Source: a virus. Taken from it: a stretch of DNA of 64,000 nucleotides. The translations under genes and the position numbers were made by a program. The stretch is taken from positions 64,001-128,000 of the IMG/VR virus record IMGVR_UViG_3300046003_007336. One strand, written 5' to 3'. Within the stretch, counting starts at the first letter, position 1; every line of letters begins with the position of its first letter. The notes under the pieces are model-generated. The model saw only the letters and a program-made list of their open reading frames with translations. It searched no databases and had not been told where the DNA came from. Below, piece after piece: positions 1,868-17,169 of this stretch.

Positions 1868-1941
1868 GCGGGTGTAGCTCAATGGTAGAGCCGCTGCCTT
1901 CCAAGCAGAAGACGAGAGTTCGATTCTCTCTATCCGCTCCA
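1868..1941 (+). tRNA. tRNA-Gly(TCC)
   Basis: Cloverleaf, anticodon loop CT-TCC-AA, TTCGATT T-loop, encoded CCA. Confidence 0.95.
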
Positions 1942-1956
1942 GCAAATCTCCAGTCT

Positions 1957-2028
1957 GTTCCAGTAGCTTAAAGGCAGAGCAACTGATTTTCAATCAGTCA
2001 GGTGGCGGTTCGACTCCGCTCTGGAATA
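1957..2028 (+). tRNA. tRNA with Glu(TTC) anticodon, atypical Lys-like body, no encoded CCA
   Basis: GTTCCAG/CTGGAAT acceptor, ACTGA-TTTTCAA-TCAGT anticodon arm, TTCGACT loop. Confidence 0.8.
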
Positions 2029-2029
2029 C

Positions 2030-2104
2030 GCGGCTATAGCTCAGTGGTAGAGCGTCTGCTTGCCAAGCAGAAGGTCGGGGGTTCGAGCCCCCCTAGCCGC
2101 TCCA
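2030..2104 (+). tRNA. tRNA-Gly(GCC)
   Basis: Cloverleaf, TT-GCC-AA loop, CCA. Confidence 0.95.
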
Positions 2105-2138
2105 TTCCTCCAACGCATACCCCATTACTCATCTTCGC

Positions 2139-2213
2139 GGTCCCTTCGTCTATCGGTTAGGACGCTAGACTTTCAATCTGGAAAGACGGGTTCGATTCCC
2201 GTAGGGACTACCA
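2139..2213 (+). tRNA. tRNA-Glu(TTC), canonical
   Basis: Glu-type D arm (GTCTATCGGTTAGGAC), CT-TTC-AA loop, CCA. Confidence 0.95.
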
Positions 2214-2227
2214 AGAATATTGGCTCT

Positions 2228-2302
2228 GTCGCCGTAGCTTAACGGTGGAGCGTCCGCTTCTCAGGCGGTTGGTTGCGAGTTCGATTCTCGTCGGCGACAC
2301 CA
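2228..2302 (+). tRNA. tRNA with Glu(CTC) anticodon, atypical body
   Basis: GTCGCCG/CGGCGAC acceptor, CCGC-TTCTCAG-GCGG arm, TTCGATT loop, CCA. Confidence 0.8.
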
Positions 2303-6836: not shown

Positions 6837-7331
6837 ATGGCAACCCAAAATATCCCTCCCCTCGTCCTTCTCCCGGACAGCCACCCGATGCTCCATCAGG
6901 CCTTGCCTGAGTTTGAGTTCGGCATTCCGGGCATCGACCCAGTCGCCCTAACGGATGCGATGTGGGAGTTCCAGCACAGTCAGAACGCCATCGGACTGGC
7001 GGCCAATCAGGTCGGCCTCAACTATCGGGTCTTCGTCATGGGCGACGAGGAGAAAATCGTCTGCTTCAATCCCAGCGTGGTCGAAGAGACGGTGTCGGTC
7101 GTCGGGCCCGAGGGATGTCTGTCCTTCCCCGGTCTAGCCCTCAACGTCGTGCGGCCAGACCGCGTTCTGGCTCACTTCCAAACCGCAGACGGGACCCGCA
7201 TCGAGCGCGAGTTCACCGGCATGCTGGCGAGGTGTTTCTGCCACGAGACCGACCACCTCAACGGGGTGACCTTCACTGAGCGGGTCTCGAAGCTCAAGCT
7301 CGAAATGGCCCGCAAGCGGATGCGAAAATAA
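6837..7331 (+). CDS. def: peptide deformylase
   Basis: GLAANQVG, EGCLSFP and HETDHLNG motifs. Confidence 0.95.
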   Translation: MATQNIPPLVLLPDSHPMLHQALPEFEFGIPGIDPVALTDAMWEFQHSQNAIGLAANQVGLNYRVFVMGDEEKIVCFNPSVVEETVSVVGPEGCLSFPGLALNVVRPDRVLAHFQTADGTRIEREFTGMLARCFCHETDHLNGVTFTERVSKLKLEMARKRMRK

Positions 7332-7372
7332 ACTCGTTGACGAAAAGTGCCCACCGGAGGTAAAAGGTCCGG

Positions 7373-7795
7373 TCATCCAATAGATGGTCACGGTGGTGGT
7401 GGGCTTAAGGGCAGCCATCCATAAAGAGTTGCGAGAGGAAGAAAGTAGGCGCGAGCCAAAATCAAGAGTCCCGTCTGCTATGATGGGGGTGTAATGACCT
7501 CCTAGCTTGGATACCTGAACGGACGGGCTTAGAACCTCAGGGAGTGTGACAGACTACAAAACGCCCGGAAGGCGTGGGAAGCCCAAGGCCAGCGATGGTT
7601 CTGAGTTCCGCCCTGCTTCACTGGAGTCGAAAACGTCGGGTAGCACAGTTGCAGTTTTGCCCGCGTATTACAAGCGGAACTGCGGGTTTGACTTGGGAGC
7701 CGATGGTGTAGGTAGCCGGAGCTTCTGGGGACGACTGCAACGGCCCTTAGAGCATTTAGCGTAGCAGCAAGCCACTGTGGCCTTCTATTGGATGA
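7373..7795 (+). ncRNA. large structured ncRNA candidate (about 420 nt), family unassigned
   Basis: No credible ORF; TTGACG-N18-TAAAAG promoter puts the start at about 7373; perfect 12-bp terminal helix 7373-7384/7784-7795 extended by 7386-7397/7771-7782; inner helix 7406-7412/7743-7749. Confidence 0.75.
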
Positions 7796-7811
7796 TGAGT
7801 TGGAGGAATAA

Positions 7812-8738
7812 ATGAGCGGCCATATCGAACGCCTGCACGACCTCGCCGACGCCCTGGCAGCGCACGCCCTGCTCGATACCGATCTTCAGGTGATGGCCCA
7901 CGACGCCGCTCTGCACGCGGTCGATCTCCGTGCCCTGCTGGCCGGGCAGTCCAAGTCGGTCACCTGGGTCCTTGAGAGCAACGTCTTCGCCGAAACCTGC
8001 TTCGACCGCATGATGGAACATTTCCGTCAGCGCGGCGTCGAGCACCACGTCGTGCGCATCATCCCCTTCGTCCATGAGATCGAGGGACGGGTTCCCGACG
8101 TCAATGGACCGTGCGTGGTCTATGGAAGCATCGGCATCCAGAAACTGGCCGACCGCCACGGCTGGTCGCCCGGCGTTTTCCCGGTCCCGACCGAGGACGA
8201 GGCCGCCATCGCGCTCGGCGACCTGTATTTGAATTCCGACGCCATGATGATGAAGATGTCCGAGGTCGAAGCCTATCTGGCTAAGACGATCACGGGCGAA
8301 GAAGTTTTCATCAAGCCCGATACCGACACCAAGGAGTTCGCCGGTCAGGTGATCGACGCCGCCCAGTTCTCGTCCTGGTATGCCGGGATGATCGATTCGG
8401 GCTACCTCGACGGTAACGATTTTTACGTCGTCGTGTCCTCGCCGAAGAAACTCGGCTGCGAGTGGCGTGTGGTGGTCGTGGACGGCAAGATCGTCACGTC
8501 GTCCCTCTACCGGCAGTGGGGCATGGTGAAGGCCGAGGAGCATATCCTTCCCGAGGTGGTCGAGGTCGTCATGGCTGCGCACGCCAAACTGGTCCCTGGC
8601 CCCGTCTATGTGATCGACATCGCCCAGCACGGTGATGAGTTCAAAGTCATCGAATACAACACCTTCAACTCGGCGGGCCTCTATGAGTGCAACGTCGAGG
8701 CCATCATCGACGCCGTCTCGGAGTATGTCGGGCGTTGA
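7812..8738 (+). CDS. ATP-grasp protein (DUF4343/R2K-like)
   Basis: VFIKP, EWRVVVVDGKIV.SS.Y, YVIDIA, KVIEYNTFNSAGLY motifs; GGAGG SD. Confidence 0.75.
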   Translation: MSGHIERLHDLADALAAHALLDTDLQVMAHDAALHAVDLRALLAGQSKSVTWVLESNVFAETCFDRMMEHFRQRGVEHHVVRIIPFVHEIEGRVPDVNGPCVVYGSIGIQKLADRHGWSPGVFPVPTEDEAAIALGDLYLNSDAMMMKMSEVEAYLAKTITGEEVFIKPDTDTKEFAGQVIDAAQFSSWYAGMIDSGYLDGNDFYVVVSSPKKLGCEWRVVVVDGKIVTSSLYRQWGMVKAEEHILPEVVEVVMAAHAKLVPGPVYVIDIAQHGDEFKVIEYNTFNSAGLYECNVEAIIDAVSEYVGR

Positions 8739-10092: not shown

Positions 10093-10169
10093 CGCGGGGT
10101 AGAGCAGTCCAGTAGCTCGTTTGGCTCATAACCAAAAGGTCGGCGGTGCGAATCCGTCTCCCGCACCCA
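10093..10169 (+). tRNA. tRNA-Met(CAT), initiator-like
   Basis: C1:A72 mismatch, CT-CAT-AA loop, CCA; only two G-C pairs at the base of the anticodon stem; TAAATA at 10081. Confidence 0.88.
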
Positions 10170-11441: not shown

Positions 11442-12107
11442 ATGAACCGTCGTACTTTCTTCGCCAGCATTCTCGGCGCCTCAGTTGCGGGCACGCTCGG
11501 CAGTCTCGCAGTTCCCGCATGGGCGCGCGCCGACGAGAGCCTGAACATCTATGTTCGCCTGATCGACCTCCAGAAGGCGATGCTGGCCAACCACGAAACC
11601 TGGAAGAGCGGCCCGGCGTTCGCCCACGTGCCCGAACTCGACGACCCCTTGGATACGCGCCCCGATGTCGAAAAGCGTCGCCGCCACCTCGTCGAACAGC
11701 GAATCGCTGACCGCCACGCGGCCCGCAAGAACTACGATCTGACCCCGGCTGACGCCGTCCTCGCGCACCTGAACGCCCATTTCGCCCCCGACGCCAGCGA
11801 CGTCAGCGAGGCCCTCGTGCGCCAAGCCCGCGCCGAGGCCAACGCGGTTGGCGGCGTGAAAATGTCCAGAACGGATTTCCGTCGCGAGGTCGCCATTGAG
11901 CAGGCTCGGCGAGAAGTCCGGGCCGTGTTCAACCGAGAAATCGAGATCGACACCATGTCGGAGGCCAGCATGCGCCGCGTGCTGAAATCGACGGTCGCCG
12001 TCGCGGTCGTCAAGGGCATGCTGTCGGTGCACAAGATGCCCCTCGACCCCAAGAAGATGGGCGCCTTCAACGAGTTCGCGACGAAGTTCAGGCACATCAT
12101 CCTTTAA
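11442..12107 (+). CDS. predicted Tat-exported protein
   Basis: MNRRTFF twin-arginine motif, hydrophobic core, AWA-RA cleavage-like site; TTGACA at 11394; AGGAG SD. Confidence 0.75.
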   Translation: MNRRTFFASILGASVAGTLGSLAVPAWARADESLNIYVRLIDLQKAMLANHETWKSGPAFAHVPELDDPLDTRPDVEKRRRHLVEQRIADRHAARKNYDLTPADAVLAHLNAHFAPDASDVSEALVRQARAEANAVGGVKMSRTDFRREVAIEQARREVRAVFNREIEIDTMSEASMRRVLKSTVAVAVVKGMLSVHKMPLDPKKMGAFNEFATKFRHIIL

Positions 12108-12144
12108 CTTGACAGTTTCCGGCCAAGGTGATTAAATAACTGCG

Positions 12145-12540
12145 TGTTGGTGACCAAATCAACCGCTTAGGCAGGACCGGGGTGCGAATCCCCGCGCCTC
12201 CACCAAAAACACATAGCCCGCTGAGATACGCGGGGAGCCGACTGTCATGTAAGCCGGGTTGGGGTTTCTAGAGCCCTGGCTATCAACGGTAGATCGGGGA
12301 CAGTCACAAGGCGGCTAGAGTTCCTTAGCGGGGGCAACAGTCTAGGCTCGCTACGACCGATATGGTCTGTGTGTTTTTGATGGGGGCGAATAGCTATCGA
12401 CTGATAGGCGTAGAGGCGAGAGACACCGGTAAGAAACGACCGAAAATCAGTTCAAATTTCTACCTGCCAACGACAACGTTGACATGGGTTCCTACGCCCT
12501 CGCGGCGTAAGGAACTCGGGGCCCACTGGGGGCCTAGCAA
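12145..12540 (+). ncRNA. ssrA: two-piece circularly permuted tmRNA; tag (A)ANDNVDMGSYALAA
   Basis: T arm and CGCCTCCACCA end at 12205; GGGGGCG 5' strand at 12382 giving G3:U70; tag frame 12466-12510; TAAATA at 12133. Confidence 0.93.
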
Positions 12541-12541
12541 C

Positions 12542-12570
12542 AGAAGGGGAGACTTCGGTCTCCCCACCTT
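12542..12570 (+). terminator. terminator after tmRNA
   Basis: GGGGAGAC-TTCG-GTCTCCCC followed by T-rich run. Confidence 0.75.
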
Positions 12571-16618: not shown

Positions 16619-16703
16619 GTCGGTGTGGCGGAATTGGCAGACGCACCAGATTTAGGTTCTGGCGCCGCAAGGCGTGAAGGTTCGACCCCTTTCACCGATA
16701 CCA
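16619..16703 (+). tRNA. tRNA-Leu(TAG)
   Basis: Cloverleaf with long variable arm, CCA. Confidence 0.95.
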
Positions 16704-16724
16704 CTGCTCCTACTCATCGTTATT

Positions 16725-16812
16725 GGCCGTCTGCATGGAATTGGTAGACAGCACCGGCTCAGAACCGGTGGTCCGAAAGGGCGTCAGAGTTCGAGTCTCT
16801 GGGCGGCCACCA
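16725..16812 (+). tRNA. tRNA-Leu(CAG)
   Basis: CT-CAG-AA loop, long variable arm, CCA. Confidence 0.93.
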
Positions 16813-16826
16813 ACGGCGATATCTCA

Positions 16827-16912
16827 GCCTCCTTGGTGAAATGTAGACACGCAGTCCTCAGAAGGCTGTGCTCGTAAAGGGCGTGCCAGTTCGTTCCTGG
16901 CAGGAGGCACCA
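16827..16912 (+). tRNA. tRNA-Leu(CAG), second copy
   Basis: CT-CAG-AA loop, long variable arm, CCA. Confidence 0.9.
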
Positions 16913-16924
16913 AGATTCCTTCAT

Positions 16925-17010
16925 CCCCTCGTGGTGAAATGTAGACACGCAGTCTTGAGAGGGCTGTGCCTGTAATGGGTGTGCGGACTCGTTATCCGCC
17001 GAGGGGACCA
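16925..17010 (+). tRNA. tRNA-Leu(GAG), atypical T-loop CTCGTTA
   Basis: CCCCTCG/CGAGGGG acceptor, TT-GAG-AG loop, long variable arm, CCA. Confidence 0.85.
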
Positions 17011-17012
17011 AT

Positions 17013-17090
17013 GCCGGGGTGATGGGAAATGGTATACCTCCAGTCCTCAAAATTCTGGGTTTGCGGGTTCGAGTCCCGCCTCCGGCACCA
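17013..17090 (+). tRNA. tRNA with Leu(CAA) anticodon, no long variable arm
   Basis: GCCGGGG/CTCCGGC acceptor, CT-CAA-AA loop with mismatched lower anticodon stem, TTCGAGT loop, CCA. Confidence 0.8.
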
Positions 17091-17092
17091 AT

Positions 17093-17169
17093 CCCCGCGT
17101 AGCGCAAATGGTAGAGGCATCCGGTTTAAGCCCGGTTCAGTGTGGGTTCGAATCCCTCCGTGGGGACCA
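17093..17169 (+). tRNA. tRNA with Leu(TAA) anticodon, no long variable arm
   Basis: CCCCGCG/CGTGGGG acceptor, TT-TAA-GC loop, TTCGAAT loop, CCA. Confidence 0.85.

Follow-up and report, generated by a model that had tools for sequence, protein, structure and literature searches.

Non-ribosomal RNAs that imitate the H42-H44 region of 23S rRNA in order to bind a ribosomal protein are known, namely the L10 (rplJ) leader and other leaders of ribosomal protein mRNAs. It is also known that phages can carry tRNAs, tmRNA and some ribosomal proteins. The phage RNA described here resembles the L10 leader (RF00557) in that it imitates the H42-H44 region off the ribosome. However, L10 leaders are cis-acting elements of bacterial ribosomal protein operons, whereas our RNA is phage-borne, has no fixed downstream gene and copies the sequence of H43 and H44 directly. 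That it is not itself an L10 leader follows from the missing match to RF00557, the straight closing helix, and a next gene that encodes an R2K-clade ATP-grasp protein rather than rplJ. GOLLD and ROOL are likewise large, ornate phage RNAs near tRNA genes (PMC12286853, PMC5737381), and GOLLD has been reported to pull down ribosomes (PMC12286853). Ribosomal RNA mimicry is not mentioned in these two papers, and neither the window nor 20 related loci matched the GOLLD or ROOL models of Rfam; OLE was rejected for the same lack of a match. Molecular mimicry against a host defence is represented by the pseudo-ToxI RNA of phage PhiTE, which imitates an antitoxin repeat RNA (PMC3475682); our RNA copies a ribosomal site instead, and the two are unrelated in sequence and fold. 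As far as we have searched, the searchable literature contains no description of our RNA and no phage gene that copies a functional rRNA centre.

The window is a stretch of 64,000 nucleotides from a phage record of 198 kb that is 44% complete, and all of its features discussed here lie on the + strand. A gap of 480 bp separates the peptide deformylase gene def (6837-7331; PF01327) from the R2K-clade ATP-grasp gene (7812-8738; PF14243/PF18299), as the original prediction had it. The predicted RNA, a mimic of the 23S GTPase-associated centre (GAC) with an insert of sarcin-ricin loop (SRL) type, spans 423 nt of this gap (7373-7795); the downstream gene is a neighbour and not part of the RNA's function. 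A predicted sigma-70-type promoter (7337-7366, with the -35 element at 7337-7342 and the -10 element at 7361-7366) would place the start near 7373. The claim that the RNA has its own promoter holds up, although a strict sigma-70 scan did not pick it up: the motif TTGAC-N17/18-TA lies 37 nt upstream of the RNA and is kept, with a different spacer, at the same position in the orthologues at loci L197 and L201. The motif also precedes all 5 other stable-RNA loci tested in the genome and has 33 sites genome-wide. Unlike those five loci, the RNA lacks the late TAAATA box, and its expression may therefore be early-only. At the 3' end, the closing helix stops 6 nt before the Shine-Dalgarno (SD) sequence of the R2K gene (7802-7806) with no terminator in between, both as predicted. 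The same RNA sequence was assembled in four other samples. In strains L204 and L205, one 3-nt unit of a short repeat at the end of the helix (7791-7798) is missing, which brings the SD 3 nt nearer and leaves the closing helix unharmed.

The genome contains def, a tmRNA and altogether 19 tRNA/tmRNA genes. Three tRNA clusters in the window (1868-2302, 10093-10169 and 16619-17169) are sorted by amino acid (Gly/Glu, Met, and five called Leu, respectively), and each is preceded by TTGAC-N17/18-TA and a TAAATA box. The tmRNA (12105-12554) is of the two-piece (permuted), alphaproteobacterial type, with an intervening segment about 150 nt longer than the Rfam consensus; the two-piece form points to an alphaproteobacterial host.

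The original prediction had left the RNA unassigned, missing both that its ends copy the 23S GAC (H43 and the tip of H44), the site where uL11 binds and factors dock, and that its insert carries an SRL-type hairpin. The two GAC halves (7397-7428 and 7759-7771) were first recognised by eye, ahead of any look-up. The first copies H43 and the segment 1082-1089 (7400 = U1060, 7407 = A1067, 7427 = A1088). The second belongs to a stretch (7744-7771) that consists of the 3' strand of a kink-turn-like joint, a U-rich link and the copy of the H44 tip (7759-7768 = 1091-1100, 7763 = A1095). A family profile built without the window copy matches the Salmonella 23S GAC with an E-value of 1.5e-12, and leave-out GAC profiles match the window with E-values of 9e-7 for the 5' block and 0.0026 for the 3' block. 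The likeness to the 23S GAC (H42-H44, E. coli 1051-1108) comprises the H43 stem-loop 1057-1081 with the A1067 loop (7397-7421, with 7/7 pairs Watson-Crick and deviations from 23S at loop positions 1068-1070), the pair U1060-A1088, the triples G1071/G1091-C1100 and C1072/C1092-G1099, G1093-A1098, and A1095. All of these tertiary-contact bases are present in the window and in 99-100% of the family, a figure that is partly fixed by the search patterns, since invariance at 1060-1077, 1087-1089 and 1090-1104 is partly built into them. Outside the pattern-fixed positions, 1058-1080 is paired in 97% of members versus 42% in shuffles, and 1057-1081 in 97% versus 80%. The 1082-1086 pair covaries across the family as it does in rRNA (U-A 57, C-G 29, A-U 19); in the window it is a U-A pair that closes a loop of 2 nt, not 3 nt.

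The phage RNA differs from the 23S GAC in being free-standing and self-closed, in carrying an insert between 1089 and 1090, and in the 1090-1101 pair, which the family swaps for G-A (A-A in the window). The G-A at 1090-1101, together with the helix inserted at 1089/1090, may alter the affinity for uL11. About 15 members (L027, L054, L059, L197, L201 and others) have a second, extra hairpin between 1077 and 1079 of H43. In two others, L194 (5260-5640) and phage ME3 (L207:1500-1815), the stems are kept but the loops of both H43 and H44 are changed, possibly reflecting a shift in target.

The ends of the RNA are joined by a closing helix (5' arm 7373-7396, 3' arm 7772-7795) that acts as a straight stand-in for H42. 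Because it is straight, the H42 kink-turn is absent, which is the element used by uL10. A terminal helix of 25 bp had been predicted; the perfect 12-bp inverted repeat (7373-7384/7784-7795) and the extension with G-U pairs stand, but the extension amounts to 11 pairs (7386-7396/7772-7782), three of them G-U, beyond one U-U mismatch, so that the total is 23 bp. A non-overlapping perfect 12-bp repeat arose by chance in 13 of 3000 dinucleotide shuffles. Across the family, the closing-helix pairs 1047-1054/1105-1112 are 70-98% paired, versus 39-75% in shuffles. The global folding energy of the RNA is ordinary (z = -1.06).

The insert of about 325 nt hangs between rRNA positions 1089 and 1090 by the kink-turn-like joint, whose 5' strand (7429-7435) forms 3 bp and tandem G-A pairs with 7745-7754. 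Among close members, the 3-bp helix is 100% paired with compensatory change; the kink-turn geometry we infer from the consensus. The joint is followed by a GNRA-capped hairpin whose internal loop is of the loop-E (S-turn) type (7441-7463), with a GAA strand that is altered in the window, and by a helix (7470-7477/7520-7527, within 7470-7527) that encloses a smaller hairpin (7485-7502). This helix was correctly foreseen and covaries, with two-sided change in 6/8 pairs. The strain variants G7487A and A7497G, both of the substitutions seen, each preserve a pair in the enclosed hairpin. The next element (7530-7609) combines a conserved single-stranded motif (7530-7540) with a helix (7541-7545/7605-7609), and a candidate long-range pairing of 2 bp (7539-7540/7746-7747) covaries (AG/CU 17, AC/GU 3, GG/CU 3, GG/CC 1, CG/GU 1). 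Finally, a three-way junction (7648-7741) is closed by a 9-bp stem (7648-7656/7733-7741) that is 90% paired with two-sided change in 7/9 pairs, and bears a side helix (7692-7699/7722-7729) that is 68% paired with two-sided change in 8/8. Three other nested helices of the original prediction are not the conserved ones. The pairing of 7406-7412 with 7743-7749 occurs in the window copy only, where it would hide the H43 loop; the strand with GCAG (7648-7656) has its conserved partner in 7733-7741, not in 7678-7683; and 7532-7540 is a motif conserved in sequence, the conserved pairing there being the adjacent 7541-7545/7605-7609.

When an insert profile was made from 16 relatives, leaving out the window and its orthologues, it aligned with the full length of 7429-7753 (E 4e-15) and gave no match to 23S. 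Among ten close members, 93 cells show two-sided change, versus 44 when shuffled (0/500 reaching the observed count) and at most 61 when slid, although kinship among members can inflate such shuffle-based counts. The window RNA belongs to a long-insert class of about 20 members, the SRL class of phage GAC mimics: it has the H43 block, the insert after 1089, the U-rich link, the H44 tip and the closing helix, and within the insert the kink-turn-like joint, the conserved motif and the SRL-position hairpin. The insert also bears an apparent likeness to 23S domain I (388-499), which was dropped because shuffled sequences reached similar scores.

The SRL-position hairpin occupies 7659-7687, with 7667-7678 corresponding to 23S 2654-2665; the stretch at 7428-7439, although SRL-like, is not its homologue. 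Like the SRL itself (H95, 23S 2646-2674), it is an S-turn hairpin with a C-G closing pair and with A2660 and G2661 kept. It differs from the SRL in lying about 1550 nt closer to the GAC, in sitting on a three-way junction not found in rRNA, and in 3/12 bases. Measured against a complete SRL (12 conserved bases, bulged G, GAGA tetraloop), the window is 9/12 identical, with G2655U, G2659A and A2662C, and therefore without the bulged G2655; member L176 shares the G2655U change. The exact SRL 12-mer occurs at the same place in L012, L026, L172, L173, L184, L194 and L206, of which 5/7 had been found via the GAC motifs only, and in 0/2440 shuffled cores; 12/122 members are within one mismatch of it. 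Still, the S-turn's GAA side never changes, whereas the tetraloop does in about half of the SRL class, so that the hairpin could instead be a generic S-turn and tetraloop module for packing, with the GAC alone being mimicked. The second S-turn hairpin at 7441-7463 and the failure of a model of the SRL half to match 23S fit this reading, which would be compatible with the decoy function proposed below. On the other side, about 19 members include 9 with a GAGA tetraloop, and seven divergent ones have the exact 12-mer, which is more than an unconstrained choice of GNRA loop would lead one to expect. We regard the generic module as unlikely, but keep it as a rival.

Pattern scans returned 118 distinct members with cores of 102-424 nt, and in all about 120 distinct homologues are found, nearly all in large phages. 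They share one plan, namely closing helix, H43, segment 1082-1089, variable insert, U-rich link and H44 tip; the insert always occupies one site, but its size runs from that of a short hairpin up to 380 nt. A search with only the 3' motif found 113 loci, 102 of them preceded by an H43 copy, and the two-block design is thus not a product of the search pattern. A tRNA lies within 500 nt of 60/117 members; wherever one occurs within 2 kb (72 members), RNA and tRNA share a strand. No family locus has a def homologue. One match among 185,579 species genomes marks the family as a phage trait. Cultured carriers are phages GAP32, CBB, BF, fHe-Yen9-04, ME3 and XacN1, in none of which the locus is annotated as RNA; a BLASTN search of cultured phages with the window RNA yielded short, weak matches only, one of them to XacN1, which was later shown to carry a member. 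Plasmid pVL1_2 (128 kb) of the cultured alphaproteobacterium Methylobacterium indicum VL1 carries an unannotated member of the long class with an exact SRL (L206:2765-3125), which is followed by a terminator-like hairpin. On a contig of 2103 nt (L181), two members with cores of 328 and 264 nt stand in tandem.

The window RNA has no match in Rfam 15, either at the gathering threshold or at E<=10, and the novelty expected by the original prediction thus stands, as do its new class of large non-coding RNA and its expectation of covariation among homologues, which is seen in both the ends and the insert. It is also borne out in finding no signature of RNase P P4 or group II D5. We rejected a 23S rRNA gene (about 2900 nt, with other domains) for want of a Rfam LSU match and of any match of the insert profile to 23S, and an RNase P RNA or group II intron for lack of the P4 motif and domain 5. 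A group I intron, including the initial idea of one in the H44 loop, was ruled out because its R-like hexamer is missing from the orthologues, an S element is lacking, and Rfam gives no match. The family is a real and apparently undescribed kind of phage RNA, although an unnamed earlier listing may exist among the more than 10,000 unnamed viral candidates of PMC10690425.

Together, these comparisons suggest a model that we consider on balance probable, in which the RNA is a free-standing, trans-acting decoy of the ribosomal factor-binding site. The smallest members amount to roughly the uL11 domain, and what is kept is the surface of the A1067 and A1095 loops, suggesting that the core job is to present this surface off the ribosome. 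Domains of uL11, uL10, bL12, EF-Tu/G or RelA were not found in the 44%-complete record, which favours a decoy for a host factor. Judging by the motif and its position in the orthologues, the RNA would be transcribed from its own host-type promoter. The long closing helix would then join and protect the ends, with the 3' end presumably trimmed from a read-through transcript; processing of this kind had been part of the original prediction and is plausible. The predicted fold of the ends is that of the 58-nt uL11 domain, in which the loops of A1067 and A1095 would be exposed, and the insert, whose helices are defined by covariation, would be a scaffold that presents the SRL-type hairpin beside the uL11 domain in a putative geometry. 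In this form, the RNA could soak up, in trans, a host factor that reads the GAC surface. The first candidate would be uL11, the loss of which from ribosomes blunts (p)ppGpp synthesis by RelA/Rel (relC); other candidates would be translational GTPases, or defence nucleases or thiopeptides aimed at the GAC or the SRL.

It is conceivable that the family works as a decoy while the window copy is decaying, having been acquired from another phage clade together with the R2K gene and having lost target binding. The window copy lacks the four-way junction contacts G1087-C1102 and G1056-A1103, which are present in 99% of the family and in L197 and L201; G1087-C1102 is lost because the junction at 7769-7772 departs from the family. 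It also lacks one base of the 1083-1085 loop, G1090 and the bulged G of the SRL. Its H43 loop can pair over 7 bp with 7743-7749, which is impossible in most relatives, and this alternative fold is about 17 kcal/mol lower in a nearest-neighbour model that ignores tertiary contacts. Several of the changes thus affect positions that are 95-99% conserved, the SRL is down to 9/12, L197 and L201 keep the GAC positions in question, and nothing but the RNA and R2K is common to the window and these two loci. However, the L197 and L201 orthologues are 73% identical to the window RNA and have the same terminal repeat, and at this distance from L197 the helices have been preserved by compensatory change (U1057-A1081; the 9-bp stem). 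The promoter and the terminal repeat are intact, both strain variants preserve pairing, and the G2655U change recurs in L176. We therefore think decay rather improbable, and regard the window copy as a worn or retuned, divergent member of the family's most elaborate class.

Alternatively, the RNA could be an active platform that holds GAC and SRL together and so recruits or activates translational GTPases away from the ribosome, or that inserts itself into damaged 50S subunits, in either case supporting translation with the phage tRNAs. The presence of both halves of the factor-binding centre in one RNA, the conserved ornate scaffold and the co-location of the family with tRNA operons are in line with such a role. 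Most members, however, have no SRL, the smallest cores measure about 100 nt, and the tetraloop variability within the SRL class also speaks against it. We consider the platform improbable, more so than decay of the window copy.

The original prediction had also suggested that the RNA is partnered with, or regulates, the R2K ligase, and had asked whether homologues always precede R2K genes. They do not: an R2K profile matched 1/118 family loci (968 kb searched), and of 7 checked loci with close R2K homologues, 5 lack the RNA (L195, L199, L200, L019, and P0007, which was judged by its 30-bp upstream gap only). The R2K gene at L194 is a distant one and lies 1.9 kb downstream of the RNA, and in L197 and L201 the RNA lies about 1 kb and 3-4 ORFs upstream of R2K. 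Most likely, the adjacency in the window goes back to RNA and gene travelling as one block, from which the intervening genes were lost. Most homologues of the R2K protein do without its N-terminal extension of about 48 residues (7812-7955; 84% coverage), and a sequence search yielded no solved relative of the protein. The first small ORF after the RNA in L197 and L201 was considered as fused to the R2K N-terminus and rejected, as the two have no similarity. In these same loci (L197:5000-5015, L201:5240-5255), 5 nt separate the closing helix from the start of the next ORF, whose ribosome-binding site would therefore fall within the helix. This arrangement, the missing terminator, the SD 6 nt past the helix, the alternative fold specific to the window and the R2K gene of L194 would suit a cis-acting leader that senses uL11 or uL10 for the next gene, here R2K, or an RNA that is the ligase's substrate or partner. 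But in addition to the distribution of R2K genes, the downstream neighbours vary and are often tRNAs, the window SD is outside the helix, and the L206 member ends in its own terminator-like hairpin, all of which makes a function in cis or with R2K very unlikely. Least credible of all is an origin as a host rRNA relic or as a captured piece of rRNA that a self-splicing intron interrupts: a single insert does split the rRNA-like domain and a P7-like hexamer pair was seen by eye, but members differ in insert size, from a short hairpin up to 380 nt, while the insertion site stays fixed, the P7-like strand is missing from the orthologues, there is no S element or D5, and the closing helix covaries and is not rRNA sequence.

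The decoy thus remains the reading that we prefer. Beyond it, we tentatively propose that large phages encode a miniature, free-standing version of the whole factor-binding centre, with GAC and SRL on one scaffold, that may engage uL11 and translational GTPases or intercept defence enzymes targeting the ribosome, with the loop variants tracking an arms race between host and phage. A decoy function, if confirmed, would indicate that hosts have defences directed against the GAC or the SRL. The natural series of members (GAC only in 100 nt, scaffolded, and GAC plus SRL) makes an old question testable, namely whether GAC and SRL suffice, outside the ribosome, to bind and activate EF-G or EF-Tu, and cultured carriers exist in phages GAP32, CBB, BF, ME3 and XacN1 and in Methylobacterium indicum VL1. 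If the RNA binds uL11 or translational GTPases, it would let phages act on the stringent response and translation by means of an RNA.
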